This document shows, one piece after another, positions 8,015-60,660 of a stretch of 64,000 nucleotides of DNA. A model generated the notes under the pieces. That model searched no databases and was not told the origin of the DNA. It saw only the letters and a list, made by a program, of their open reading frames with translations. Each line of letters starts with the position of its first letter. Within the stretch, counting starts at the first letter, position 1. The stretch is from an uncultured delta proteobacterium. Its GTDB lineage: Bacteria; Desulfobacterota; WTBG01; CAIYCZ01. The DNA is taken from NCBI GenBank assembly GCA_963803975.1, contig CAWDOY010000053.1, positions 1 to 64,000 on the forward strand, read 5' to 3'. Both the position numbers and the translations under genes were made by a program.

Positions 8015-10749
8015 TCAGCGGGAATTCGCAAAACTTAAAAAGCTCTCATCCTTCATTTCACGCCTCAATTTATTGATCCGCGCTTTCAGCCGGGCAGGGG
8101 ATGCCTGCTCAAGGTCAAAGAGAAAACAGCTTGCTTCATTGAGCAGAGACGAGGGTATTGATACTGATTTTGTGCTGAGGGACGAGAGCACAACGGGCAT
8201 GGCATTTTGCAGGAGCCTTACAGCGCGCGCCCGCAGCTGCGGGTTTTTCTTCAGCACCTTCCGTACGTCGCCTTCCGCCGCGTAGTAAAGAGCAGTCAGC
8301 CGGTTTCCCGGCAATGATTTTTTCAAAACCGCGTCTCTGAAGGCCCGCAGCACCGGGAGGTGTTTCCTGTTGGCGCTGTTTTTAAGAAGCTCTGTTGCAG
8401 CGCAGCCGCCGTCATCACCGGGACCCGTAGAAAGAATTATATCACGGGTAACCATTTCACCGGCATTGACCGTAATCCCGAAGAGCGTAGCGCTATTGTA
8501 GCCATCAGCTGCAATCTCGATATCATGCACACCGGCAGGCATCATTAATGAATAAAAGCCCTCGCTGCTGGCGCAGGAGCTTCCGCTGGAGGAAGACACT
8601 GCCGCGTTGTCGACCGTGCTCCCGGTATCTTGAGCAGTAATAGTACCGGAGAGCAAACCAGTGCCGGACGATGAGCACTTGAACATGCCGCTGGCAGTGC
8701 CCGCAAGAATAGTGGAAGAGGGAAGGTTCTGTAGCAGACCTTTTTGCTTAAAGCCGTCGGCAGCGCGCGCGGCAGCAGGCCCGCTGTTTACATCAAATAG
8801 TATATAGTCTGACAGCCCGGCACAGGTCCAGTAATTACCGCCGTCCAGGCTTACATAAATTCCATTCCGGTATAACGCTGCATAAACGATATCCTGATTT
8901 GCGGCGTCGATTTTTACACTGGTAACGGCAAATGCCGGCTTCCCCTCTTTTCCTCTCGGCAAACCCCTGGTTTTCTCCTCCCAGGTTATACCAGCGTCAG
9001 TACTTTTATAGATTCCCGTATAGCTGTTATTGCTGCCACCGCAGCCGATATAGAGGAGGTCAGGATTGGATGAAGAGATGGCAATACTGTTAACAATGAG
9101 CTGTTGAGACGAGGCAGGGCTAAAAGTTTTACCGCCGTCACTGCTTTTGTAAATATTCCCGGGAGCAACAGGAGCAAAGAAACTACCGGTGCCCGCAAAA
9201 ACAGTCTGCGGGTTTGCCGGATGGATCTTTACCGTATTGACGGGCACCGTGGTTTCCCAGAGCATGCTATACGTTGTGCCGCCGTCAGTGCTTTTTATGA
9301 CCTCACCTCTTTTACCTGAAGAGAAGGCAACGCCCGCACAGATTATATCCGGATTAGACTTTGAAATTGCTATGGAGCTGACTTTATGCCCGTCACTTTT
9401 ATCTGAGACATCGGTATAGGTCCAGGTAGCGCCATTGTCCGTACTTTTTCCCAGCGCCCAGTCGAATCCGGCAAAGAGGGTATTCCGTGTGCCGGGTGAA
9501 AGCTGACTGCATAGGCAATCGACTCATTGACCCGGGTCCATTGCGTGCCGCCTGTTTGCCGGTAAACACCGGACAGCGTTCCTGCAACAAGGGTAGCTGG
9601 CGCTCAACGGAGAGACATCAATGGCGAACACCTGGTTTGCTCTGATTCCTTCATTCCTGGGCTCCCAGGTTTGGGCTCCATCCGAGCTTTTAAATACCCC
9701 CCGATTCAGATCGCCGCCAAAGAGAATATCAGGATTGTCAGCGGGAGCAGCAAGGCAGAGGAACTCTCCCGGCCGGTCATAATAATTCCAGGAATCACCG
9801 CTGTCAGTACTTTTTGCCACGCTGTTCACCAGCCCGGCATAAATGGGGGTATGGATGAGCCCGGAGCTATACACAGGGCGCGACAGCCCGTTGTGTCAGT
9901 CACCCAGGACCATCCGGTGGCGGTATTGGTGCCGTCCTGTTTGCGCAGCACGCCATACCCGTCAGCAGAAAAAACAAGATTGGGTTCCGAGGGGTGCACG
10001 AGTATTTCATCAAGGAATGAAAAAGGATATACCTTACCGTCAGACCACTGACCCTTATTCCACGACCACCACTGGTTTCCGCCATCCATGGTCATGAAGA
10101 TTCTGCCTTCCGGTGAGAGGCCGGCCTTGCGTGATGTCGCCCATATTTCATCCGGCACGGCGGGATTGACATCGATATCCCAGATATTGAACGGCTGGTA
10201 TTCAAGCGGAAACGTGTTCTCCATTTTAAACCAGGTGTCGCCGCCATCGGTTGTTTTATAGAGGACTCCCAGTTCGTCAGTCCCGTTCGGCCCGCCCGTT
10301 CCCACGTACACGGTATCGCCGGTCACATCATGAGGATCAACCTTGACCGTGTAGCAGAACCTTCCTTCTTCGTTGGCGAAATAGAACGTTTTCCAGGTGA
10401 ACCCGTAATCAGAACTCACATCTACATAATGATTGTCGGCGACCCAGATTTTCTGCGGGTTATTGGGATCTATGTCAATGTCATATACTTCATAATTTCT
10501 GAACCACCCTGCATTCTTCGCCCCGATCAGCCAGCTTTCGCCGCCGTCTTCAGAGGCAAAGAAGCCGTCGCCGTTCCAGCTCCCGGCATACAGGTAGGTG
10601 CTGTCATAAGGATCGATGGCAATGCGGTAGATCTGGCCGCCATAGAGGCCGAGGTCATTCCACAGGGGAATTCCCTGTGCGTTTATATCAGGCATCGCGC
10701 ACGCGCAGAGCAGCACTGCGAGGATGAGTATCCATCGTAACTTTGTCAT
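8015..10749 (-). CDS. Secreted BNR/Asp-box beta-propeller protein with carboxypeptidase-regulatory-like and CFI-box-CTERM-like domains (several frameshifts)
   Basis: Signal peptide MTKLRWILILAVLLC; many (S/T)xDGGx(T/S)W Asp boxes across ORF pieces; C-terminal GCAATELL..LRAFRDAVL..G..LYY. Confidence 0.75.
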
Positions 10750-10791: not shown

Positions 10792-11646
10792 TTATTGGGA
10801 GCCATAGCTGTGCAGCCCCGAGAGGAGAAAATTCACGCCGAGGAACGTGAACAGCACGGCAGCAAACCCGATGATTGAGAGTATCGCCGTCTTCCTCCCG
10901 TGCCAGCCGCGGGTCAGGCGGGCGTGGATAAATGCTGCATACATGAGCCAGGTGATGAGCGACCAGGTTTCCTTCGGGTCCCAGCTCCAGTAGCTCCCCC
11001 AGGCATAGTTTGCCCACACCGCGCCGGTGATGATGCCGATGGTCAGCAGCAGAAAGCCGATGGCTATGGTTTTATAGATAATGTCATCAAGAGATTCCAT
11101 GGACGGAAAGAGCTCGGACATATCCGCACCTGCGGGGACTTTTTCTTTAGCCTTTTTATACTTGACGAGATAGGTGATGCTTGAGCCAAAAGAGATGGCA
11201 AATGCAGAGTAGGAAAGAAAACAGGTCATCACATGGTAGGTGAGCCAGTTGCTTTGCAGCGCCGGCATCAGCGGCTCGATTTCATCCTGAATGTTGGGAG
11301 AAAGCGAGGCGTAGGCCATGGCAATGGAGATCAGGGGAAAGATAAACACTCCGAGCGCCTTGCTCTTGTAGCGATATTCCACGATAAGGTAAATAATAAC
11401 CGTTGTCCAGGAAAGGGACATAAGTGATTCATACAGATTTGAAAGAGGAATGTGGCCGTGTCCCAGCTGATATGATTCGTACCAGCGCATGCCCAGGGCG
11501 ACGGTGTGGACGACAAGGCCAAAAATGGCGATACCGGTAATTACCTGGCCAAATTTCCTGTTTCTGAAGAACAGGTAGGTGAAATAGGATACCATGCAGA
11601 TGAGATAGGTAAACGTAACAATGCCTAACAGCTTTGAACTGATCAT
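10792..11646 (-). CDS. ccsA: System II cytochrome c biogenesis protein CcsA/ResC (CcsB in some nomenclature)
   Basis: WWD motif GAVWANYAWGSYWSWDPKETWSLITW; LQSNWLTYH; GLHSY. Confidence 0.95.
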   Translation of the reverse strand: MISSKLLGIVTFTYLICMVSYFTYLFFRNRKFGQVITGIAIFGLVVHTVALGMRWYESYQLGHGHIPLSNLYESLMSLSWTTVIIYLIVEYRYKSKALGVFIFPLISIAMAYASLSPNIQDEIEPLMPALQSNWLTYHVMTCFLSYSAFAISFGSSITYLVKYKKAKEKVPAGADMSELFPSMESLDDIIYKTIAIGFLLLTIGIITGAVWANYAWGSYWSWDPKETWSLITWLMYAAFIHARLTRGWHGRKTAILSIIGFAAVLFTFLGVNFLLSGLHSYGSQ

Positions 11647-11948: not shown

Positions 11949-13343
11949 TCATGATCTCAAGGTTTTAAACAGCGTTTCAAATTCCCTGCTGAACGCGATC
12001 TGGTTTTTATTGGTTGAGCCGGCAAGCACGGCTTTGCACTCGCCGTCCTTCTCCTCCACTCTCAGCCAGATGCGGCGGTGGGAGGTGAAAAATGCGACAT
12101 AGATGCCGCCAATGAGCAGGATGCAGCCGAGCCACACGACCAATACCCCGGGGTCATGGGTTACCTGCAGGCCCGTATAATACCGGGGTTGGATATTTAC
12201 CAGCTGCAGGTCAAGCGGCTGATCGCCCTTGCCGTGGAAATCAGGAAATTTTGCAAATATCCATTTATTGAACTCTTCTTTCCCGCCCTTGAGGACCGTT
12301 ACCCGGACGGCAGGATTATTGAACTCCTGAGACCGTGAAACGGGTTTGCCGTTATTATCCATCGCAAAATCAGAGAGGAATTCATCTGCGCGCACAACAT
12401 AGTTTGTTCCCGCAATTGGTGCGCTGCTGCCCACATCCAGGGTCAGGTCCTGCTGTTTGCCCGAGTCTTTTAGTTTTACGCTGAGGTTAATCTTGCCCCC
12501 GCCATCCGGAGCACCACCGTAGCTTGACTGGTAAAAATAGATACCGCGGTAAACCAGCGGGTCGTTTACCTCGATGGTCTTGGTTAAAACTTCCCGGTTG
12601 TTTTCGAGCACCGTAAGGGTGCTTTTGTAGTCTTTGGGCCTTTGGGAGCCTTCATAAAAGGTGACTTCAAACTTGTCACAGCGTATGGCAAAGTCGAGAT
12701 TCCTGGTCTCGTTCGAGTTTTTCAGCTGCATCACATGCGCAGTCTGCCCTTCGGGGATCTGCATGTAGCCCTGATAGCCCAGCGATCCTGACATGGACCC
12801 CAGGATAATGATTATCAGGCCCAGATGCGTCAGATAGAACCCGAAACGGGTGTATCGGCCGCTTTCAGAAAAAAGATGCCGCCCGCCCTGATTTTGTGTG
12901 AGAGCAGGTTGGTTAAGATACTGCGCGATGACTGTTGCATACTGCTTTTCCTGTTCAGCGGAAAATTTTTTCAGAGTGAATTTTCTGACATTTGTCAGTC
13001 CCTGCAGCAGCTTGTCATCAAGCACCGTGTCCCCATGAAATATCGCACGCCAGACCCGCGGCAGCCGGTTAAGAGAACAGGCTGCGAGGTTTATGGTAAA
13101 GAGGGTCATCAGGGAGATAAACCACCACGAAGCAAACAGGTTCAGGAAACCCAGCGTGGAAAAGAGCCGGTACGTTGACGGGCTGTAGAGCTGCAGGTAG
13201 TGCTGGGGTGATTCATTCTGGGGGATGAGCGTGCCAATGACGCACACGCTGGACAGAATAATAAGCAAAATTATGGTGAGCTTGATGGAAACGAAAAAAT
13301 CCCTTATCCTCTGTAGCATGCTCTTCTTCTTTTTTGCTGTCAT
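11949..13343 (-). CDS. resB: System II cytochrome c biogenesis protein ResB/Ccs1
   Basis: IGTLIPQ, SWWF, THLGL, VNDPL.YRG.YFYQSSY, YTGLQVTHDPG. Confidence 0.92.
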   Translation of the reverse strand: MTAKKKKSMLQRIRDFFVSIKLTIILLIILSSVCVIGTLIPQNESPQHYLQLYSPSTYRLFSTLGFLNLFASWWFISLMTLFTINLAACSLNRLPRVWRAIFHGDTVLDDKLLQGLTNVRKFTLKKFSAEQEKQYATVIAQYLNQPALTQNQGGRHLFSESGRYTRFGFYLTHLGLIIIILGSMSGSLGYQGYMQIPEGQTAHVMQLKNSNETRNLDFAIRCDKFEVTFYEGSQRPKDYKSTLTVLENNREVLTKTIEVNDPLVYRGIYFYQSSYGGAPDGGGKINLSVKLKDSGKQQDLTLDVGSSAPIAGTNYVVRADEFLSDFAMDNNGKPVSRSQEFNNPAVRVTVLKGGKEEFNKWIFAKFPDFHGKGDQPLDLQLVNIQPRYYTGLQVTHDPGVLVVWLGCILLIGGIYVAFFTSHRRIWLRVEEKDGECKAVLAGSTNKNQIAFSREFETLFKTLRS

Positions 13344-13544: not shown

Positions 13545-14075
13545 ATGAAAACCATGAAAAAATGGGTTATATATTTAATTCTTGCTCTTCTTCTGTTTGG
13601 CCTGCCGTTTATAGCCTATACTGCAGAAGAGTACGCGGGGGCAACGAAATGCAAGCTGTGCCACATTAAAATATATAAATCATGGCAGCAGACCAAGCAT
13701 GGCACGGCATTTGATGTGCTGAGTCCGGGCAATAAAGCTGAAGAGAAAAAGAAAGCCGGTCTTGACCCGCAGAAAGATTATACCGCTGATGCCAAGTGCC
13801 TTGAATGCCACACCACCGGCAACAATGCGCAGTTCCCCGGGATTCAGTGTGAAGCGTGCCACGGGGCGGGCAAGGGGTATACCAGTATCAGGGTAATGAA
13901 CAAGAAGCTGTGGAAAGAAGATCCTAAAAAACAGGAGCAGCTGGCTTTAGCTGCGGGTCTTATCATTAAACCTGACGAAAACCTGTGCAAGAAATGTCAT
14001 AACGAAAAAAGTCCCACCTTCAAACCGTTTAATTTTGCTGAGCGCTACAAAGAGGTATCGCATAAAACTGAATAA
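13545..14075 (+). CDS. Periplasmic tetraheme cytochrome c (c554-like family)
   Basis: Signal peptide; CKLCH, CLECH, CEACH, CKKCH; YAGATKC..CH...Y.SW.QTKH pattern; divergent from resB. Confidence 0.88.
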   Translation: MKTMKKWVIYLILALLLFGLPFIAYTAEEYAGATKCKLCHIKIYKSWQQTKHGTAFDVLSPGNKAEEKKKAGLDPQKDYTADAKCLECHTTGNNAQFPGIQCEACHGAGKGYTSIRVMNKKLWKEDPKKQEQLALAAGLIIKPDENLCKKCHNEKSPTFKPFNFAERYKEVSHKTE

Positions 14076-14910: not shown

Positions 14911-14949
14911 AGCAGCGCTCCCCGTCTTGTCCGGACAGGGAGCGCTGCT
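14911..14949 (-). terminator. Stem-loop downstream of the cohesin-cytochrome genes
   Basis: AGCAGCGCTCCCcGTC...GACaGGGAGCGCTGCT inverted repeat. Confidence 0.65.
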
Positions 14950-15014: not shown

Positions 15015-17927
15015 TTACCGTATCGCAAGCGTACCCGTGCATATCTGGGTTCCGGTTAACACGGTTACTATCTTATTACCCTTACCAATGAGGTACTGAG
15101 GCGGCACCATTGCCAGCACCTCGATTGCAGTAGGTGTGATGAGAGTAGTTCTAATGTAACGGAAGCCCTGGATACTTATTGCGCTGGTCTCATCAAATGC
15201 ACCGCCTTCTGTCTGAATTTTGATCCGTGCGAACAGCGGGATAAGAAATCCGGATCTGACGGATTCCGGATCAACCGTCAGCGAGCAGGACGGCGGCGGA
15301 TTCGGTATCGTTGTAGTTGTGGTTATACCGCCTGAACAGCTTGAGTGACAGGTAAGGCATGAACCGCCGTGCTGCACTATTAGATTACATTTGCCCGGAG
15401 AGGTCAGGGGGTGGCATTTTACGCAGTTCCCGGGGCTCACATTGCCTGCCTGCGGAGTGCCGTCATGACATTGGGAGCAGTTGCCGTGTCCTGAGCGTGC
15501 ATGCAGGTCGCTCACTGTATGGCATCCCGTGCAGTCATCAATATGTCCATACGCTGGCGGGGCAGTAGTGGTGGAGGTCGACTGATTTGGTATAGTGGTC
15601 GTTGTAACACCGCCTGAACAGTTTGTGTGACAGGTGAGGCATGAGCTGCCGTGATTAGTTATTAAATTACACTTACCCGCAGCACCCAGAGGATGACACA
15701 CGATACACTTGTCAGCCTCTACGTTGCCTTTTGCAGGAGTTCCTGCATGGCACGATGCACAGGTTTGGTGCCCTGGATGGTCATGTAAATCACTCGAAAC
15801 ATGACAGGTGAGACAGATACTGAAATGATCGCTGGGAGGCAGCACCGTGGTGGTAGAAGATCCTGCGCCGGTTGTGGTGGTTGTTGATCCAATGGTTGTG
15901 GTGGTACTCGGTGCGCACATAGCGGGAGTGTGGCAGGTGTTGCATGAGCTGCCGTGGAACGCTACTAAATTACACGTACCGGGTTTGCCAGTGGGGTGGC
16001 AGCCTGCGCACTTGCCAACATCCGCATTACCAGCTGTCGCTGGAGTTCCCGTATGACAGTAGGTGCAATTGTTGTGTGCTGGCTTAGCATGTATATCACT
16101 CACTTCATGACAGGTGAGACACAGGGCATTGTGTCCGCTTGGAGCTGAAGCAGAAGTGGTGGTAGAAGATCCTGAACCGGTTGTGGTGGTTGTTGATCCA
16201 ATGGTTGTGGTGGTACTCGGTGCGCACATAGCGGGAGTGTGGCAGGTGATGCATGTGCTGCCGTGGAAAGCCACCAGGTTACACTTGCCGGGGTTGCCCA
16301 CCGGGTGGCATGAAACACACTTGCCATCATCAACATTACCTGCCTGCGGCGGCGTGCCGGTATGGCAATAGGTGCAATTATTGTGCGCTGTTTGCGCATG
16401 TAAATCACTCACTTCATGACAGGTGAGACATTTGCTGATGTGGCCGGTTGTGCTTATAGCAGTGCTGGTGGTAGAAGACCCTGGACCGGCTGTGGTAGTG
16501 GTACTCGGTGCGCACATAGCGGGAGTGTGGCAGGTGATGCATGTGCTGCCGTGGAAAGCCACCAAGTTACACTTGCCGGGGTTGCCCACCGGGTGGCATG
16601 AAACACACTTGCCATCATCAACATTACCTGCCTGCGGCGGCGTGCCGGTATGGCAATAGGTGCAATTATTGTGCGCTGTTTGTGCATGTAAATCATTCAC
16701 GTAATGGCAGGTGAGACACTGGTCGGTGTGTCCGCTTGGGGCGGAAGCAGTAGTGGTAGTAGACCCACCTGGAATGCTGGTTGTTGTTCCTCCGCCTGAG
16801 CTGGTTGTGGTGCTGCCGCCACCGATGCTGGTTGTGGTACTGCCCCCGCCGGTACTGGTTGTAGTATTTGAGATAGTAGAAGTGGTAGTGGTAATCGGCG
16901 CTCCGCCGGAACAGCTCTTGTGGCAATCAAGACAGCTTTGGGTTACAAGCTGGGCATGCACGTCCACGATCTTACAGTCGCCGGTGCCGCTGAGCGGGTG
17001 GCATGCAGAGCACTTGTCAGCCGTCACATTTTTACCCGGGGTGCCGTTTGGATGACAGCTGCTGCAGGTATTGTGTCCGGACCGGCTGTGTATGCGCAGG
17101 CTGTTTGTGGAACTGAAATCCGTGGGATGGCATACCACGCAGCTGCTCATATGATTATTTGTGGTGTTGCTATCACAGTCAACATGGCAGGTGAGACAAT
17201 TTGCTCCATGAAGAACAGGTGTGGGTAGGTTTATTAGGTTACATACTCCCGGGCTGCTGCTGGGATGGCAGACGACGCACTTGTCCGGCTTTACATTGCC
17301 TGGCCCGGGGGAGCCTGCGTGGCAAGCGCTGCAGTTGCTTTGATGGGTGGTAACACCGTGTAATGAGCTTGCGGGATGACAGGTAATGCAGGTTTCAATG
17401 TGTGGAACAGGTTCCTGGATCACAGATGAGGTAGTGGTGCTTAATACGCCCACGGTTATGGTGCCATCATTACCTGTGACAGTAATAACACCCCCGGTGG
17501 CGGTCGACGCACTGGGGTCGTTGCTCAGCTGGTAGCTGGTAGCTGGAGCGCTGCAGTTTATCGCAAAGGTGACATTAGCGACAACTCCGTTGCCGATGTT
17601 GTTCACATTTGCTGAGGAGAAAATACCCACCCGATACAGTCCTGGTGATACAATGTTAGAGGCTGCTGATTTCCCTGCTGCTGTTCCTGCCGGCCCTACT
17701 GCGACACTTACCGGGGTTAGAAATTCGCTGTTGTACCCGATATCCGTAGCAACACCAGCAACCGGGGCTATGCCGTCGTTGGTCAGGGTTACGGAGATGA
17801 TAACCTGTGCGCACTGGTTACCTGAAGCAGTGCCAAGGTCAACAGTAGGTGTTGCCTGTGCAGCACCTGCCAGAAAAAGGGACAAAAGCGCTGCAAACAT
17901 TGTTATCCTGCCATGAGCTGTTTTCAT
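15015..17927 (-). CDS. Secreted cohesin-domain multiheme cytochrome c, 7 tetraheme modules (28 CxxCH) with Thr-rich linkers
   Basis: Signal peptide; cohesin-like domain (VATDIGYN..GPAGTAAGK..PGLYRVGI..GVVANVTF); 28 CxxCH counted in 7 repeats; beta-rich C-terminal domain. Confidence 0.88.
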   Translation of the reverse strand: MKTAHGRITMFAALLSLFLAGAAQATPTVDLGTASGNQCAQVIISVTLTNDGIAPVAGVATDIGYNSEFLTPVSVAVGPAGTAAGKSAASNIVSPGLYRVGIFSSANVNNIGNGVVANVTFAINCSAPATSYQLSNDPSASTATGGVITVTGNDGTITVGVLSTTTSSVIQEPVPHIETCITCHPASSLHGVTTHQSNCSACHAGSPGPGNVKPDKCVVCHPSSSPGVCNLINLPTPVLHGANCLTCHVDCDSNTTNNHMSSCVVCHPTDFSSTNSLRIHSRSGHNTCSSCHPNGTPGKNVTADKCSACHPLSGTGDCKIVDVHAQLVTQSCLDCHKSCSGGAPITTTTSTISNTTTSTGGGSTTTSIGGGSTTTSSGGGTTTSIPGGSTTTTASAPSGHTDQCLTCHYVNDLHAQTAHNNCTYCHTGTPPQAGNVDDGKCVSCHPVGNPGKCNLVAFHGSTCITCHTPAMCAPSTTTTAGPGSSTTSTAISTTGHISKCLTCHEVSDLHAQTAHNNCTYCHTGTPPQAGNVDDGKCVSCHPVGNPGKCNLVAFHGSTCITCHTPAMCAPSTTTTIGSTTTTTGSGSSTTTSASAPSGHNALCLTCHEVSDIHAKPAHNNCTYCHTGTPATAGNADVGKCAGCHPTGKPGTCNLVAFHGSSCNTCHTPAMCAPSTTTTIGSTTTTTGAGSSTTTVLPPSDHFSICLTCHVSSDLHDHPGHQTCASCHAGTPAKGNVEADKCIVCHPLGAAGKCNLITNHGSSCLTCHTNCSGGVTTTTIPNQSTSTTTAPPAYGHIDDCTGCHTVSDLHARSGHGNCSQCHDGTPQAGNVSPGNCVKCHPLTSPGKCNLIVQHGGSCLTCHSSCSGGITTTTTIPNPPPSCSLTVDPESVRSGFLIPLFARIKIQTEGGAFDETSAISIQGFRYIRTTLITPTAIEVLAMVPPQYLIGKGNKIVTVLTGTQICTGTLAIR

Positions 17928-17994: not shown

Positions 17995-19215
17995 TTATTG
18001 TGTCTTTTGATCCAGCGCCCAGACAGCCATGTTCACTGTCAGCCCGTTTTCTTTAGTATCTGTGGTGTCGCCGGTGGTTACCATCACATCGTAGTGACCC
18101 TGGACATTGGGTTTGACTGCCACCAGGGCAATCATGGTGTCGCCCGCGGCCAGTGTTGCCATGGGACGGATATCTCCTGACGGGTTAAAGCTCAATCGAG
18201 AGGACATTTTCAACCCACCCGTATCGCTGCGAATGACCAGAAGATGGAGTCGCTGCCGCCAGCGGGAACTGGTTATGGATAGTGGTGTAATGCTGGAAAT
18301 CCCGCCGGCAGGGGGTGCAGCAACGCTTACCAGTGCCCTGGCCCCTATACCATTGGCATAATCAACAGTCAGTATCGTATCAGTTACCTCTGCTCCGGCA
18401 GTATTTTCACCTGCCACGTAATTGCCGTTTTCATCAATAGTGCTGCCGATGGAACTTTCCACTGACCAGTGCAGCTGTGGCGGGGCACATGCAGCATCGT
18501 TTAGTTGCGCGGCAAAATTTACTGCCTGCTTAGCCATAACGTTGACAGCAGCGGGATTGATAATAAGCGAACAGAAACCCGGAGCAGCAGCAGTGGTAGT
18601 AGTGGTCAAGGCTGCGGTTGTAGTTGCAGATGATATGGTCGTAGTTGTTGTTGCCGGCACGGTCGTGGTTGATACATTGGCTGGTATAGTCGTTGAGTTT
18701 GGACTGTCATCAATTTCTGAGGTAGTGGTGCTGGAGGTGACTTCTATAATGCCAGCGCCACCGCCCGTTGCGACAGGAGACCCCTGAGGCGTTGAGCAGC
18801 TCGGATTATTACCCAGTTGATAGTTTCCTGCGGGCGCACCGCTGTTAACCCTGAAAATGACATTGGCAACCAGGCCGTCTGGTATGGGAGTCAAATTGGA
18901 GGTTGAGAGAACACCGACGCGATATAATCCCGGTTCCACGATATTCTTGACAACCTCTTTGCCTGCTGCTGAGCCTGCCGGCCCTATGGTGGCATCTATC
19001 GGAGTTAGGTGCGCACTGTCATAGGTAATGTCAGTGCTGGCGCCTGCAACCACGGTTCCCGTTTCATTAGTCAGAAATATTGGGATCGTAACCTCCTCGC
19101 CGGGACGCACACTGTCAGAGCCCATATCAAGATCAGGAGCTGCCCAGGCAGCGCCGCATAAGGAGATTGTCAGGAGAAGAGCTATAACTGATGTACTGCC
19201 AAAAACTGATTTCAC
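17995..19215 (-). CDS. Secreted cohesin-domain protein with Thr-rich linker and Ig-like domains, no hemes
   Basis: Signal peptide; PGEEVTIPIFL..STDITYD..GPAGSAAGK..PGLYRVGV..DGLVANVIFRV; poly-Thr linker. Confidence 0.8.
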   Translation of the reverse strand: MKSVFGSTSVIALLLTISLCGAAWAAPDLDMGSDSVRPGEEVTIPIFLTNETGTVVAGASTDITYDSAHLTPIDATIGPAGSAAGKEVVKNIVEPGLYRVGVLSTSNLTPIPDGLVANVIFRVNSGAPAGNYQLGNNPSCSTPQGSPVATGGGAGIIEVTSSTTTSEIDDSPNSTTIPANVSTTTVPATTTTTISSATTTAALTTTTTAAAPGFCSLIINPAAVNVMAKQAVNFAAQLNDAACAPPQLHWSVESSIGSTIDENGNYVAGENTAGAEVTDTILTVDYANGIGARALVSVAAPPAGGISSITPLSITSSRWRQRLHLLVIRSDTGGLKMSSRLSFNPSGDIRPMATLAAGDTMIALVAVKPNVQGHYDVMVTTGDTTDTKENGLTVNMAVWALDQKTQ

Positions 19216-19345: not shown

Positions 19346-22157
19346 CTACCTCCATGCCGGAGCAGCTCCGCCACTCAGATCAATTGTTGAGTCAACTAAC
19401 ACTTGCGCAAGATACAGCGCGTTGTGAATGTAACCACACGGCTCCTTCTTGCTGAACTGGTAGTTGTATGCTGCCTTCAACAGTTTCGCATCAAATGTCG
19501 TGTAGCTGGCTTCACCAGTATCATGAACATTATTGTTGTTGGCATCAACAAACCAGTACGGGTACGCAGCCCCATCATACACGATGAATTTTCCCAGCGT
19601 GCCCGCAGAGTACGCGCGAATCTGCGTATACAGTGCATCTTCCAGCCCTGCGATTTCACTCTGTATCGACTCGGTCACATTGCCGTCACTGTCAAAGTCA
19701 GTGTTGCCGAATCCTGTGGCCGGGCGAATGTTAGCGAATTCAAAGGTGCCGGTCTGCGACACATCACCAGCGTGACATACGCAGTTGTTGGGGTTAGGCT
19801 TGGTCACCCGGTGCGACGCGTACGACGCATTCAGGCCGTCACTGCCCATATGACACTGCACGCAGTTATTAAACTTGCCGCCGTGAGCAGTGAACGGGTT
19901 CTGACCGGCATAGGTCTTGCCCGCGTACTCGTAGCCGCCCTGCACCTGCGTGCCAAACAGCGATGCTGCTGCTGCGTAATAGTGCACATTGGTGAAGGAG
20001 TACGGGCCGGCGGGGCCTGGTGCTACCTTGGTATCTATGCTCTTCTTGGACTCGCGGCCCTGGTGACAGAGCAGACACAGGTTGCTGTCGTCAGTTGCCC
20101 CGGCACCACCCATATTGGCTTTTAGCCCTGAGGGGAAGGTTACATCTTTCACTGCCAGGCGCGGTGCATTCGTGTCAGTTACACTGCTGTGGCAGTTGGC
20201 GCACAGCATGCCGTTAGCCGGTTCTTCCTGGATGTTGACATTGTTGGTCAGGAAGAACGGGATGCCGGCGCCTGCATGACACTTAGCGCATGAACCCGGA
20301 GGTCCCGGCAGTGCCGGAGCAGTTGCTACATCCCAGTGTCTCCAGGCCTCGGATGAACCGTCAAAGTGTCCTTCATCCACCCGGTTGCAGCCGGCAAGGC
20401 TCACTTCCAATGAGGGTACCAGGGTAGAGAGCTTAATGTTGAGATCCTCTATGGAGTCATACAGCAGCTCGATGATATACTTTGCCATTGTGTGCATAGG
20501 AACCAGGATCCTTGATCGATAACTGGTAGTTGTAGGTTGCCTTGAGCAGCCGGGCTGTATAGGCATTGTACCGGGTGACTTCAGCTGGATCAGCTACACC
20601 ATTGCCATTATCATCAATAAACCAGTAGGGGTTTGCGGCCGGATTGTACACAATGCCTTTACCTGACACGTTTGTAGCATATGCCTGGATAGCCTGGTAC
20701 AGCTTCACTCTGAGGCCGTCTGCTTCATAGTAGAGACCTTCAGTTACGTTGCCGTCACCGTCATAGTCTTCCAGGGAGCCCTTCATGCGGATATTCTTCA
20801 GGGCTGCCTTGTCTGTTGCGCCGGTATGACAGGTAACGCACTTGTCATACTTGAGCTCAAGAGAATGCGCGTCATGACATTTTACGCACGTATCATAGCC
20901 TTCCACGTGGGCAAACTTGGCATCATAGACCTTGCCCGCATACTGGTAGCCGCCCTTTGCCTCGTTGCCGTACAGGGTTGCTGCTGCGGGAAAGTAGTGG
21001 ACGTTCCTGAAAGATGAACCACTATCCACTGCATCAGGGTCTCCTGCCAGTAGCGGTCTGCCGGCAATGTATGCATTCACGCTGTCTGTTGATTGCCGAC
21101 CCTGGTGGCATACCATGCAGCGCGCTTCCGGACCCAGACCCGTGAGCGTAAGCTTGGGAATCGGGGGCACTGCAGTGGCATCACCGGTGGACTCGAGCAC
21201 CACGCTGGTCAGCTCACTTGCCTTCTGGTTATGACATGCCTCGCAGGAGACGACCGTGCCGATCGGTGCCGGGTTATCTACCACACCGGCTGCGGTGCCG
21301 TCTGCGCCCAGGTAGTCAAGATAGCCCGGGGTGCTGTGGCATTTGGCACAGCCGACAGGAACCGCTGGGGTACAGGTTGTGGCTGGGGGTACAGGAGTAC
21401 ATTCATTCCAGTCATTGAAGGCCTCAGCAGTAGTGTCTGCATGGCCGGATTCCTTCCATAGCTCTTCCTGGGGTATCACGTCAACCGTGGGGCAGGCACA
21501 TTCCTTGGTCTCCAGGAAGCAGTTGATGGCCTTGATCACATCATCAATCGAAACCTTGTTGTCTGCGGTTGGATCACCTAAGGGATCGACCGGGTCTAAC
21601 CCCAGAAACATTCTCACTTCCATCAGTATTTCGTTAAGGGCGGTTACGCCGTCCAGGTTAAAGTCAGCGGTCTTGGCAGTAAAGAAACTGCCTGACACGC
21701 AGGCGATCCCCAACGCGTTTCCTGCAGGGTCAGATGCGCTGCACAGGTTGGTCAGGTCTACGCCGCCTACCGGGTTCTTCTTCAGCGTGAAATTTACATA
21801 GGCCACTACGCCATCGCCGATGGGGGTGGTGTTGCCTTCGGTAAATACGCCAACACGCACTACGCCGGGTGACAGCAGGTTGAATGAAACAGTTTTACCC
21901 ACTGCTGAGCCGGCCGGCCCGATGGTTGCGCCGGTGAAATCTAAATAACTGTCATTAAACGTGATGTCCGTGCTCACACCGGCAATATTGGGTGCTGCAC
22001 CGGCAGTGTTGACCAGAGTAATCGGCATGACCGCTGCTGCGCCAAAAGAAGCGCACGGCAGCGCGATATCTGCTAACTTTAATTCTGCTGCAGTTGCCGC
22101 ACTGCATAAAGGCAGGATGAAAAGACATACAAGAAATAGGGTTTTAAAATACTTCAT
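19346..22157 (-). CDS. Secreted cohesin + dockerin-like + multiheme cytochrome c (two pentaheme repeats; 9 CxxCH + 1 CxCH); 1-nt frameshift at about 20482
   Basis: Joining ORFs restores DPGSYAHNGKYIIELLYDS; cohesin N-terminus; duplicated Ca-loop DFNLDG/DPTADNKVSIDD; CHQGRxS and HY.AAA.L(Y/F)G motifs repeated. Confidence 0.85.
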
Positions 22158-34606: not shown

Positions 34607-35534
34607 TTAATAAATGAGAAATATTTTTATCCACTCCGCAACTCCTGAACTCATTAACTCATAACGCTTGTTTAACAGGGGAAAGCCCATGGTCTCCCGC
34701 TGCTGCAGGTATGCCTCGGCGACCGCTTTTGCCAGATTCCTTACCCGGCCGATATAGCCGGTCCGCTCAGTGATGCTGATCGCACCGCGCGCCTGCAGGA
34801 GGTTGAACGTGTGGGAGCATTTCAGGCAGTAATCATATGCCGGCAGGATCAACCCCTTGGCAATCACCCGGATTGATTCCCGCTCGTACATTTCAAACAG
34901 TTTAAAGAGCATGTCCGGATCTGACTCTTCGAAATTATATTTAGAGAATTCAACCTCGCCTCGGTGGTGAACGTCACCGTATTTGATGCCCCTGGTCCAC
35001 TCCAGGTCATATACATTGTCAATCCCCTGCAGGTACATGGCAATGCGCTCGATGCCGTAGGTGATTTCAACTGCCACCGGCTTTAAATCTATGCCCCCTG
35101 CCTGCTGAAAATAGGTGAACTGGGTTATCTCCATGCCGTCAAGCCACACTTCCCAGCCCAGTCCCCAGGCGCCCAGCGTGGGCGATTCCCAGTCATCTTC
35201 CACAAACCTGATGTCGTGCTCAAGCGGATCAATGCCAAAGCTTTTGAGGCTTGCAAGATACAAGTCCTGAATGTCCATGGGGCGACGGCTTCATGATCAC
35301 CTGGTACTGGTAATAGTGCTGGAGGCGGTTGGGATTCTCTCCGTAACGGCCGTCAGTAGGGCGCCGCGACGGCTCAACATAGGCAACATTCCACGGCTCA
35401 GGGCCAAGCACGCGCAGAAACGTTGCGGGGTTGAAGGTGCCTGCTCCCACCTCAATATCGTAGGGCTGCTGGATTATGCAGCCCCGGTCCGCCCAGAATT
35501 TCTGCAGGGATAAAATCAAGTTCTGAAAAGTCAA
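34607..35534 (-). CDS. glyQ: Glycine--tRNA ligase alpha subunit (frameshift at about 35280)
   Basis: [40 protein letters not shown]. Confidence 0.97.
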
Positions 35535-43516: not shown

Positions 43517-46500
43517 TTATATGTTTTTACACTCCGTGTTTCTTTTCCAGAGCAGATAGATTGCCGGATACACCAGCAGCTCCATTAGAAACGAGGTAAA
43601 CAGGCCGCCTACCATGGGCGCGGCGACGCGCTTCATGACGTCAGCCCCGGCTCCTATAGACCACATGATGGGCATGAGGCCCATGGCTGCGGCGGCCACG
43701 GTCATCATCTTGGGACGGATGCGCTTTACCGCGCCGTGGATGATCGCTTCATGCAGTTCGGCCATGTTTCTGAGCTTATTATTCTTTTTTGCCTCATCAT
43801 AGGAAAGATCCAGAAACAGGAGCATAAACACGCCGGTCTCCGCGTCAAGCCCCATGAGGGCGATCATGCCGACCCAGGCGGCAATGGATACATTATAGCC
43901 CAGGAAGTACATGAGCCACACCGCGCCCACCACCGAGAAGGGCACCGCCAGCATGACCACCGCTGCCTTGAACGCGGACTTGGTGTTCATATACAGCAGC
44001 ATGAAGATAAGGAAGATGGTCACCGGCACCACAACTTTCAGGCGCTCGCGCACCCTGAGCATATTTTCATACTGGCCGCTCCAGATAAGGGAATACCCGG
44101 TCGGCAGAGCTACATTCTGCATAACCGCTTTCTTGGCCTCATCCACATAGGAGCCCACATCCCGGTCAGCTATGTCCACAAATACATAGCCGGCAAGCAT
44201 GCCGTTTTCATCACGGATCATGCTCGGGCCCGAGATTGAGCGTAACTTCAGCCAGTTCAGCCATGGGGACCTGGATGCCATTCTTTGTGGTCACCAGGAC
44301 CCGCTGCAGCTGGTCGAGGTTGGCCCGCAGATCGCGCGGGTAGCGCAGGTTTATGGTATAGCGCTCGCGGCCTTCAACGGTGGTGGAAACGGTTTCGCCG
44401 CCGATAGCGTACATGATGACGTTCTGCAGATCTTCGATGGTGAGGCCATAGCGCGCAAGAGCTTCCCGCCGGGGAGTGAAATCCACAAAATAGCCGCCGG
44501 CCACACGCTCGGCATAGACGCTCCGGGTACCGGGAATGGCCTTGACAACTTTTTCAATGGCTTCGCCGGTGCTCTGGATTTTGCTGAGGTCGGCCCCGAG
44601 GATTTTTATCCCGATAGGCGTCCGCACGCCGGTGGAGAGCATGTCAATGCGGCCCTTAATCGGCATGGTCCAGGCATTGGTGTTGCCGGGGATCTGAATG
44701 GCCTGGTCCATCTCGTTGATGAGTTCATCATAGGACATGGTGTCAGGCCAGATGCGGCGAAATGCTGCTTTGAGCCATCCGGGGGCCCAGGATGAGTACC
44801 AGCGGTCTTTTGCGCGCCACTCAGAATGGGGCTTGAGCACCACGGTTGTTTCCATCATGGAAAACGGGGCCGGGTCAGTGGAACTTTCAGCTCGCCCGGC
44901 CTTGCCGAACACTGAGACCACTTCCGGGAAACTTTTTATGATGCGGTCCTGGGTTTCCAGGAGCTTCTGCGCCTCGGTGACGGAAATGCCGGGAAGGGTT
45001 GTCGGCATATACAGAATTGTGCCTTCATTGAGCGGCGGCATGAACTCATGGCCCAGTCTTAGGTAGACGGGTACCGTGGTTGCAACTATAATGATGGCCA
45101 GGGCAATGACTTTCTTTGGATGTCTGAGCACAAGCCGGCATGGTTTTTCGTACAGCGCGAACAGGATGCGGCTGATTGGGTGCTTCTCCTCCGGATAGTA
45201 TTTGCCGACAAAAAGCGCGTTCATGATCGAGGCCAGAGGCCGCGGTTTTATCTGGAACGGGTCCATCCGCGCAAAGAGCATGCGCACGGCCGGGTCAAGG
45301 GTTACCGCCAGCAGGGCAGCTATCGCAATGGCAAAGGTCTTGGTGTAGGCGAGCGGCGTGAACAGCCGGCCCTCCTGGTCCACCAGGGTAAAGACCGGAA
45401 GAAATGAGACCGCAATCACCGCCAGGGAGAAAAATACCGAGGGCCCCACTTCAAGGAGGGCTTCCAGACGTATCTTGTGAAAGTCGCCTTTGCGGCCTCC
45501 CTCCTGCCAGAGCTCAAGCTTTTTGTAAGCGTTCTCGACCTCCACAATAGCGCCATCCACCAGCACACCGATGGAAATGGCGATGCCGGCAAGGCTCATA
45601 ATATTTGAGGTAATGCCCCATAAGTACATGGGAATAAAGGAGAGCAGCACTGATATGGGTATGGTGATGATGGGAACAATAGCCGAGGGAAAGTGCCAGA
45701 GGAAGAAGAGAATGACCAGGCTGACGATGATCATTTCCATGATCAGCTCTTCCTTAAGGTTATCAATTGATTTCTGGATAAGTTCCGAGCGGTCATAGGC
45801 GGTGACGACCTCAACACCTTCCGGGAGCGATGCTTTCAGCTCTTCAAGTTTGCCTTTGACTCGATGGATAACATTCAGCGCATTTTCCCCGTGGCGCATA
45901 ACAACGATGCCGCCCACGGCATCGCCTTCACCGTTGAAGTCAAGCACGCCCCGGCGGATCTGCGGCCCCAGTGCAATAGTAGCAACGTCTTTCAGCAGCA
46001 CCGGGGTGCCCTTTTCGTTTGTTTTAACCACCACCTTGTCCAGGTCAGCAGTGGATTTCACATAGCCCTTGCCCCGCACCATGAATTCGGTGCCGGACCA
46101 TTCAATGAGCCTGCCGCCCATTTCGTTGTTGCTCTTTTTAATTGCTTCGGCCACTTCCATGAGAGACAGCCGGTAGCTCTGCAGCCGGTTGGGATCGATG
46201 GTCACCTGGTACTGCTTCTGAAATCCGCCGATGCCTGCCACCTCTGCCACCCCGGGAACGCTCTGCAGGGCATAGCGCAGGTACCAGTCCTGAAAAGTCC
46301 GCAACTGCGCGAGGTCGTGTTTGCCGCTCTTGTCCCGCAGCACGTACTGGAAAATCCAGCCCACGCCGGTGGCATCAGGGCCCAGTTCGGTTTTGGACCC
46401 TGCCGGAAGACTGCCCTGGATTTTGGAGAGGTATTCAAGCACCCGGCTCCGGGCCCAGTAAATGTCGGTGCCGTCCTGGAAGATGACATAGACATAGGAG

Positions 46501-46767
46501 AAGCCGAAGTCGGAAAAGCCCCGAATGGCTTTGATGCCGGGGGTGCCCAGGAGTGCCGCGATAATCGGGATAGGTGACCTGGTCTTCAATGATGTCAGGG
46601 CTTCTGTCCCAGCGGGTGTATACTATGACCTGGGTGTCTGACAGGTCAGGTATGGCATCCAGGCGTATCTGCTTGAGGGTGTACACAGCGGCGACCACTG
46701 CCACTGCCACCAGCAGAATGACCAGGACGCGGTTGTTCGCTGAGAACTCAATAATTTTTTTTATCAT
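43517..46767 (-). CDS. cusA: CusA-type Cu(I)/Ag(I) RND efflux permease (frameshifted)
   Basis: LDAIPDLSDTQVI, GPDATGVGW; Met-triad contexts LYMPTT, PFSMMET, RIDMLSTG; RIRPKMMT. Confidence 0.92.
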
Positions 46768-48323: not shown

Positions 48324-49728
48324 CTACTTATGGCCGGTATGATCATGCTGTGCTGCACTGTCAGCATTGGCTGCGGTTCGAAACAATCTTTTTCCCACCA
48401 CCACTTCAAGATCAGAGAGCTCCTTTTCATAATCCGCAAGCAGCTCGCTTGACTGGGTCTCGAAATTACAGAGCGTAATCTGGGCGTCAATAAGGGCAAG
48501 AAAATCAACGGAGCCGACTTCGTAGGCTGAAAGCGCAGAGTTCAGCGACTGCGTTGCCTGGGGGATGATGCCGGTCTGGTACAGCTGTATAAGACTTGCA
48601 GACCTTTGCGCTTTCGCCACATGATCATGGATCTTGTACGCGATTTCGTTTTTTACGGCAGCATATTGAGACTTGGCTTCCTCCATCTGGTGGAATGTTT
48701 CAGCGACCTTTTTGTCCTGCTTGTTTTTAAACCACAGGGGAATTTTAAAGCCCACGAAAAATGAAAATACATCGGGACGATCAAATGACTGCCCGGGGAC
48801 TTTAACCAGTGCGTCAGAAGTTGTTCCATTTTCATTCAGGACCGCTCCGGGTAAAATACCGCCTGGTTCCCGGTAGCCCTCACGCTGTCCATACATGGCA
48901 GTTACATTTACACTGGGGAAGTACTGCTTTTTTGACAGCTTATAATCAGCTTCGTTTTTTGCAATCACGTTCTGCAGGCTTTGCAGAACCGGGTTTTGCG
49001 CCAGCGCCATGTTCCGAAGCTCTGCCTCGTTGATGGCTACGGTTCTTTTTGTTACTGACAGGAACGCCGTCCAGCGGGGCTGACGGCTCGCGGTTGAGGA
49101 GCCGGTTCAGCTCTGCGATATATGATGTTTTCTTCTGCTCAAGCTCAACCAGGCGCTCAATAAATTTTGACTGCTCCACCTGGGCCTTGAGGATGTCCTG
49201 CTGCAGGCCTTTGCCGACCTCATATTTTTTTTGCGCAATTTCCACAAACTTTGCCATCAGGCCCTTATTCTTCTCCGCAGTCTGCATGTGCGCGTAATTG
49301 ATATACAGATCATAGTAGGCGGTTTTTACATCCCTGATGAGCTTTAGCTTGCCGTCATCAAGCAGCCTGTCAGAGCTTTTGGCCTCCTGGATTGCCATTT
49401 TTTCCTTCAGCGATGTAATGCCCGGCATCGGTATGTTCTGGCTGATGGCAATCTGCTTCATCGTCATGTCGATCTCGTTGAATTTGAAGTTATCGGTGTT
49501 CAGATTGGCAACGCCGAAGGCCAGCTCCGGGTCATCCCAGGATTTTTCCTGGGGCGGCCGCTGCCACATGGCATTGCGTTTCTGCTGCAGAGCCGATATT
49601 TCAGGATTTGCCTTCAAGGCTTCCTGTATCAGCTGCTCAAGGTCCAAGCTGTTTTGCCCCTGGCAGTTCACCGAGAATTGAAATAATAATAAAATGCCGC
49701 TAAGGGTTATTATGACTGCTCGTTTCAT
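48324..49728 (-). CDS. TolC/CusC-family outer membrane efflux protein (frameshifted)
   Basis: EALKANPEI, WDDPEL, Y.VGKGLQQDILKAQ, AYEVGSVDFLALIDAQ; directly upstream of cusB. Confidence 0.88.
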
Positions 49729-59915: not shown

Positions 59916-60660
59916 ATGAAAAAATATCTTTACTCCTTGCTGGCGCTCCTTTTTTTATTGTCCGGCGGCATGGCTGCGAAGGCCCTGGCCTATACGGTTG
60001 TCACGCCGCAGCAGGCACAGCAGATGATCGAAACCAATAGCGCGCTGACCGTTGTTGATGTCAGAGAAGTTAATGAATACTGCGGCGCGAACGGCCACAT
60101 CGCCGGGGCGCTCAATTATCCCCTGGATTTCAGAGGTGCTGGAGCAAGGATTATGCAGGAACTGCCTGCGGACGCTGAAATCCTTGTGGTCTGCCAGAGC
60201 GGACATCGCAGCGTCACTGGCTGCGGAGTTTCTTGATTCCAAGAGTTTTCTTCATGTGTATTCCATGGAGGGAGGCATGTCTGCCTGGCAGTGGGATACC
60301 GTAACCTGTGTTGACAGGGACGGAGATGGCATCAATGATGACCGGGACAATTGCCCGACCGTGTCCAATCCTGACCAGAAGGACACTGACCAGGACGGTG
60401 TCGGGGATGCCTGCGAGGAAAAGAACCTGTGCCCCGCTGAGGCAGTCTATGGGGAAAATTCAGAGGAGGTTCTGCTGCTCAGGGATTTCCGTGACAGCGT
60501 GCTGCACCAAACAGCAGAAGGCAGGAAGGCAATTACCCTGTATTACGCCTTAAGCCCGGTGCTGGTGAACATGATGACGCAGGATGATGGATTCAAAGGC
60601 CGGCTGCGCGCGGCAATTGACAGGGTTTTGCCGGAGCTTAAAGAAAAAATGCGCAGATAG
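59916..60660 (+). CDS. Secreted rhodanese + thrombospondin type 3 repeat + CFI-box-CTERM-like protein (frameshifted)
   Basis: [81 protein letters not shown]. Confidence 0.8.

Follow-up and report, generated by a model that had tools for sequence, protein, structure and literature searches.

The window analysed here is a stretch of 64,000 nucleotides, and on its minus strand, at positions 15015..17927, lies a single intact open reading frame for a cytochrome of 970 residues, with 28 CxxCH heme motifs arranged as seven groups of four; 5000 residue shuffles of the same protein gave 0.33 such motifs on average and 5 at most. Although many neighbouring genes are frameshifted, an assembly artefact could be ruled out for this gene, since its frame is intact and the same protein, with 971 residues, was assembled independently (P0280). 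All parts of the protein are given here by their minus-strand positions. It starts with a predicted Sec signal peptide without a lipobox (residues 1–25, 17853..17927, read by eye from the sequence), which is followed by a cohesin domain (residues 26–160, 17448..17852; PF00963, 41.8 bits against a cut-off of 24.1), and it ends with an IPT/TIG-type Ig domain (residues 878–970, 15018..15296), recognised from a model and a fold match. The earlier note on this DNA had described none of these three segments. Between them, the motif pattern and the module alignment delimit seven tetraheme modules. Module 1 (residues 176–251, 17175..17402) is only 7 residues away from module 2 (residues 259–339, 16911..17153), after which a 60-residue Thr/Ser/Gly linker (16731..16910) leads to module 3 (residues 400–472, 16512..16730). 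Module 4 (residues 496–568, 16224..16442), 93% identical to module 3, comes after a 23-residue linker, module 5 (residues 599–671, 15915..16133) after 30 residues, module 6 (residues 701–770, 15618..15827) after 29 and module 7 (residues 795–864, 15336..15545) after 24.

The modules agree closely with the earlier note, which had reported seven units of about 70 residues, each with four CxxCH motifs, four extra His and two extra Cys, most of them parted by Thr/Ser linkers. All of these can be counted in the ORF. In each of the seven, four spare His and two spare Cys follow the order His-heme1-His-His-heme2-heme3-Cys-His-heme4-Cys: one His stands upstream of heme 1 with three residues in between, two lie in the loop between hemes 1 and 2 and one in that between hemes 3 and 4; a fifth His is present in module 6 only. 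Five of the six junctions (23–60 residues) are linkers with 46–67% Thr plus Ser and two or three Pro each. The seven modules share 22 invariant columns and are 37–93% identical in pairs, and modules 3 and 4, judged by their sequences, are a recent duplication. Pieces of the gene were also detected in 20 sequencing runs from 14 studies, with sediment, freshwater or wetland as the labelled habitats. Two RNA runs of one study gave contigs spanning parts of the gene, but these contigs cover most of 12.5 kb as well and are therefore no proof that the cytochrome gene is transcribed.

A profile of the seven modules, whose search the earlier note had proposed, gave 157 matches among 1.84 billion representative sequences at E-values up to 0.001, and it uncovered a family without any full-length match to a characterised one. 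When pooled with other searches and genome loci, 348 sequences had any match, with a score gap at 30–40 bits, and the family set was taken as the 180 non-redundant proteins scoring at least 35 bits, with 249 complete modules (incomplete ones were left out). These proteins carry one to seven copies of the module, a single copy being present in 143 of the 180 (fragments included). The module core has 53–87 residues across the family (median 68) and about 72 in the seven modules here, and some members have CX3CH or CX4CH heme motifs. The family signature is present in 231 of the 249 modules and in 0 of 123 other multiheme proteins. Of 42 genomes from a single Desulfobacterota class, 22 were found to have family members; 25 had been matched, but three weak ones, generic cytochromes where inspected, were set aside. 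Outside this class, a sample of 401 genomes of the phylum (13 candidates scored per genome) gave weak matches, at 42 bits or less, in 23 genomes, and the signature was not found in the nine of these out-of-class loci that were inspected. One relative, P0011, is a protein labelled Thermodesulfobacteriota. A scan of genome contigs gave one locus, a generic 24-heme protein. Small relatives often adjoin other multiheme or Mo/Fe-S genes, and no conserved partner was found among the scanned neighbours (95 proteins from 132 listed, and some fusions).

One could argue that the module belongs to the cytochromes c7 or c3 as a divergent member, which would make the whole protein a GSU1996-like concatemer. 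Indeed, the whole protein scores 33.2 bits on cytochrome c7 (PF14522, cut-off 24.8), its neighbours in the protein atlas are generic c7/c3 clusters (0.90–0.94), and its best sequence match in the PDB is 3OV0, which, like 3OUQ, we take to be GSU1996. However, the c7 score arises from summed CxxCH matches, with none of the seven modules reaching the cut-off alone (of the six scanned on Pfam, the best had 24.7 of 24.8 bits and the others 16.7 or less), and the atlas flags its own recognition as weak. The best single stretch of the 3OV0 match scores 18.7 bits, and the distal His columns do not align. For cytochrome c3 (PF02085, PF14537), the best score in the six scanned modules was 17.4 of 22.9 bits, and an NCBIfam scan of the whole protein gave no match. 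The c7 concatemers (3OV0, 3OUQ) do resemble the present protein in having small multiheme modules in tandem, but theirs are triheme modules packed as a wire, with another His placement and without the Cys pair. The tetraheme c3, STC and NrfH/CymA/CbcS cytochromes also have four hemes per unit, yet the module differs from them by its short core, by its own His/Cys order, by scores below the Pfam cut-offs and, as far as an apo model can show, by the lack of any fold match. Bis-His hemes are described for c3 and STC in the accessible part of bioRxiv 10.1101/2025.04.14.648717. Together with the signature, these differences make a c7 or c3 identity very unlikely. No description of the module was found in a literature search that covered few subscription papers. 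At the sequence level, the module is thus a new family within an architecture of a known kind, or a new bead on a known kind of string.

The earlier note had further proposed that each module is self-contained, with bis-His ligation of its own hemes, and the family comparison argues for this, since the module also exists as a single copy, fused to an enzyme and in circularly permuted form. In P0147, it is fused behind a sulfite-oxidase-type (molybdopterin) Mo domain, for which it is likely to be the built-in electron acceptor. In at least four proteins, a circularly permuted module with heme order 2-3-4-1 is inserted inside another domain. In the sequences P0160, P0162, P0174, L068 and L071, this 2-3-4-1 module is inserted into a loop of a larger, secreted protein that resembles a propeller by eye and is matched by no Pfam family. 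A variant first module with extra Cys is seen in L015, L016 and P0152, and in L015 hemes 3 and 4 of this module are moreover parted by a Thr linker. As for the two spare Cys, both are present in 238 of the 249 modules, both are absent in six and only five modules are discordant; being kept or lost together, they fit the disulfide that had been suggested for them.

The structural comparison proposed in the earlier note gave no match to a solved structure, as far as apo models without hemes can tell. AlphaFold2 folds module 7 into a compact helical apo model (pLDDT 82, pTM 0.65), for which Foldseek returned 0 matches at E-values up to 10 and the VIA fold search 0 of 48,161 chains at Z of 2 or more, neither search having a positive control. 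This double null is weak evidence of a new fold; all the same, we consider it probable that the modelled tetraheme module will turn out to be one.

A more complicated picture emerged for the distal ligands. Four spare His per module, as counted in the earlier note, are indeed the rule for internal modules, but most family members have only three and lie directly behind the signal peptide. Both classes share three distal His, while the fourth, within 12 residues before Cys1, is nearly universal among internal modules (120 of 123) and rare among signal-adjacent ones (11 of 126; two modules were reassigned to the other class by hand). Among these 11, two combine a long extension with the usual His at −4; in six the His is predicted to be the first residue, in two it falls within the signal peptide, and in one it is located at −3. 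In proteins with both module types, the first module is without the fourth His in 18 of 19 cases. The His of internal modules is located at −4 to −6 in 107 modules and at −9 to −12 in 13. An unpaired Cys has been gained in its place in P0042 and P0047, and one internal module, in P0188, has neither His nor Cys.

What then could be the fourth distal ligand in the signal-adjacent modules? The predicted mature protein starts at −7 or −8 before the first heme motif in 100 of the 126, against 15 on average and 25 at most in shuffles, with cleavage sites called by a small-x-small pattern derived from the same data. The predicted first mature residue varies between these modules, and no other ligand-type column is conserved in the 126, the best being a Lys in 46. 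From this fixed start, the varying residue and the lack of another ligand column, we infer that this role falls to the free N-terminal amine, a reading that we hold to be fairly probable. In the commoner single-copy form, the fourth distal ligand would thus be the amine that signal peptidase sets free, and when a module has moved inside a chain a His, or twice a Cys, would replace it; such a replacement on internalisation would also be why all seven beads here carry the fourth His. Cytochrome f is a monoheme beta-sheet protein, and we liken the module to it in the amine ligation only, without claiming homology. An N-terminal alpha-amine is known as an axial heme ligand in cytochrome f, and also in CooA and PefR, according to the accessible text of PMC8044140. 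A His/amine swap tied to the domain position was not found in the papers searched. Whether this is the first multiheme cytochrome with an N-terminal-amine ligand and, jointly, with a new tetraheme fold (docking aside) is nearly evenly poised, tilting slightly towards no.

Alternatively, the signal-adjacent modules could have an open five-coordinate heme for catalysis or ligand binding, or a ligand supplied by a partner. Precedents exist in the CymA heme with His/water ligation and in NrfH, which takes a Lys from NrfA (both from the accessible part of bioRxiv 10.1101/2025.04.14.648717). Moreover, a phylogeny-aware pairs test found only three independent pairs on supported branches (1.9 in the same direction, 0 opposite, p 0.5) and is underpowered, so that the module tree does not show the His/amine swap beyond shared ancestry. 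Yet an open site would leave unexplained both the fixed cleavage at −7/−8 with a varying residue and the appearance of His or Cys at this place on internalisation, and a partner-filled site is difficult to reconcile with the partners and C-terminal domains, which differ widely across the family. We therefore regard either form of this alternative as rather unlikely.

The position of the upstream His also bears on how the beads are connected. If the modules were stacked as a wire, rigid or polymeric, from which the linkers loop out, this His could ligate a heme of the previous module, which we take to be OmcS-like ligation in trans. The first modules without His do occur exactly where no module precedes, 15 of 87 junctions in the family have 15 residues or fewer, and the models, which lack hemes, are blind to heme stacking. 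However, the His is retained in 16 of 17 first modules that follow a non-heme segment and have no other module before them, indicating that it acts within its own bead; single-module fusions and permutants possess the upstream His too, and the linkers vary in length from 11 to 73 residues. A stacked wire is thus quite improbable. Rigid packing may be more local: 12 of 24 first junctions have 15 residues or fewer, and with only 7 residues between them here, beads 1 and 2 may pack rigidly.

We favour a flexible chain, as the earlier note did. A model of modules 6 and 7 with the tail (pTM 0.41) predicts disordered linkers with pLDDT below 50, a value that parts of module 7 also fail to reach in this model, but the idea of a flexible tethered chain is itself not new, having already been published for PgcA and its homologues. 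The Thr/Ser linkers stressed in that note are present, but they are not special to the cytochrome: Thr runs occur in 65 ORFs of the genome, only one of them multiheme, and so represent a lineage-wide spacer style. PF02366 is uninformative on linker glycosylation, with 10 matches in the genome but also matches in 6 of 14 control genomes. The C-terminal domain is modelled with pLDDT 90–98 and matches a plexin IPT domain (Z 9.8, rmsd 2.4, 85 residues aligned), the top rows being mostly IPT/TIG, and it is common to unrelated secreted proteins of the lineage. Across the family, 56 of 139 C-terminal tails are of this Ig type and 50 of a CFI-box type, and both types are also present on non-heme proteins of the genome (39 ORFs with the CFI-box type, window positions 8015–9265 and 60052–60660 among them, and six with the Ig type). 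The CFI-box-CTERM-type tail is possibly a lineage-wide sorting signal; no paper on this term was found in the literature searched.

The cytochrome gene is the last of a three-gene run on the minus strand, closed by a 16-bp terminator-like hairpin (14911..14949). Upstream of it is a gene for a signal peptide, cohesin, Thr linker and Ig-like domains without heme (17995..19215), and the first gene of the run (19346..22157) encodes a signal peptide, a cohesin, a dockerin-like repeat (21486–21677) and nine CxxCH motifs. This first gene is split by an assembly error, as seen from an intact 923-residue relative (P0273) and from an extra base near 20484 that is missing from two other sequencing runs. 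A ResB/CcsA pair of system II cytochrome c maturation (ResB 11949–13343, PF05140; CcsA 10792–11646, PF01578; both minus strand) is located 1.7 kb from the cytochrome gene, and a plus-strand tetraheme c554-family gene (13545–14075, PF13435) lies between the operon and resB.

The genome has only four cohesins, all at these cytochrome loci, with one in each gene of the run and the fourth on a paralogue of its first gene. This paralogue (L004, G000:C52:1-3200) is broken by several frameshifts, and upstream of it lies a single signal-adjacent module with a Thr linker. There are three dockerin-like repeats in the genome; that of the nine-heme neighbour consists of two Asp-rich loop-helix repeats without a PF00404 or other Pfam match. 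The clearest one is found in L107:1078-1707 (G000:C35), a secreted protein in which an FN3-like domain is recognised by eye beside a Thr linker, and which is a candidate for another cohesin partner. The chain could dock by its cohesin on the nine-heme protein, but this step is only tentatively proposed. Equally tentative is the wider picture of a cellulosome-like cytochrome assembly in this genome, in which cohesin and dockerin would clip the chain to another cytochrome. Since a cohesin-dockerin query matched in only 3 of 42 class genomes, and cohesin was present in only six fetched relatives, docking is not a rule of the family. Non-cellulosomal cohesins and dockerins have been described in ANME archaea and their partner sulfate reducers, with a proposed role in surface attachment (accessible text of PMC9012536 and PMC10553843). 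As here, they are located on secreted proteins of anaerobes, but the cargo named in that text comprises ABC binding proteins, S-layer domains and adhesins, not cytochromes; the supplements may list cytochrome fusions.

The genome (98% complete) is rich in other cytochromes. It has 64 ORFs with at least two heme motifs, many of which are frameshift pieces, a GSU2203-family decaheme adjoining a GSU2204-like gene, Hmc-like genes and three secretins, while no dsrA was found in it. In one region of about 23 kb (L091-L092, G000:C19:13900-37400), 16 multiheme ORFs are clustered with genes for membrane subunits of the cytochrome b-like and NrfD/Fe-S kinds. Two loci (L093:7325-9780, L094:315-3007) encode another sort of repetitive multiheme protein, with 22 and 13 CxxCH motifs in the largest pieces; it lies beside a two-component system and has no NCBIfam match. 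Several housekeeping genes of the window look truncated or split (34607–35278, 43517–46589 and 48324–49728; glyQ, an AcrB-family pump and an outer-membrane efflux protein), which is consistent with assembly indels.

Taken together, we lean towards an exported, flexible chain whose tetraheme beads are each self-contained and bis-His-ligated; it would relay and store electrons through tethered diffusion and is possibly docked by its cohesin. The protein would be exported by Sec and its hemes attached probably by the adjacent ResB/CcsA system, each bead folding alone around four bis-His low-spin hemes and one disulfide. The seven-bead chain, between its cohesin and Ig-like domain, would then lie at the cell surface, store up to 28 electrons and pass them on by tethered collisions. 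The linkers would give it up to about 60 nm of slack (173 residues × 0.34 nm), and because of this slack transfer between beads should be slower than in a stacked wire. The two weakest steps are the docking, in which the cohesin would bind the dockerin-like domain of the operon's nine-heme protein, and the electron route, in which the chain would accept electrons from a porin-cytochrome conduit and hand them on to minerals, humics or partner cells. A periplasmic chain, acting as an electron store and shuttle pool and not as a surface relay, would fit the visible signal, which is of the Sec type only and has no lipobox, and the small relatives beside other multiheme or Mo/Fe-S genes. This location is unlikely, however, since the cohesin, the Thr-rich linkers and tails shared with many non-heme secreted proteins suit the surface, and the slack exceeds the periplasm of about 17 nm (width as given in the accessible text of PMC11492766).

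The tethered-diffusion model is taken over from PgcA of Geobacter sulfurreducens, described as flexible beads-on-a-string or 'microbial heme-tethered redox strings', with homologues of 3–14 hemes, some of them with multiheme domains (accessible text of PMC10570954 and PMC11520253); linker-joined multiheme modules are also noted in that of PMC11492766. Both proteins have cytochrome domains joined by low-complexity, Thr-containing, unstructured linkers. PgcA, however, consists of three domains with one heme each, joined by Pro-Thr linkers; it has a lipobox and reaches 18 nm. In the present protein, Thr/Ser/Gly linkers join seven tetraheme beads that belong to another family, there is no lipobox, and the ends are a cohesin and an IPT domain. 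It would work like PgcA without being one.

Tethered chains have so far been studied on the three-heme PgcA. The module described here has four heme motifs in about 70 residues and occurs naturally as singles, as chains of two to seven, in enzyme fusions and as circular permutants, a series that is a ready test set for electron flow along tethered chains. If the amine is indeed the fourth ligand, a rare ligation would be extended to multiheme proteins, and nature would offer His, amine and Cys variants at one site for examining the effect of the ligand on redox potential. For the organism, the chain suggests that extracellular electron transfer takes place in an uncultured lineage of sediments that has no dsrA, and for the family, if the proposal holds true, the module would be a plug-in redox domain of one uncultured Desulfobacterota class.
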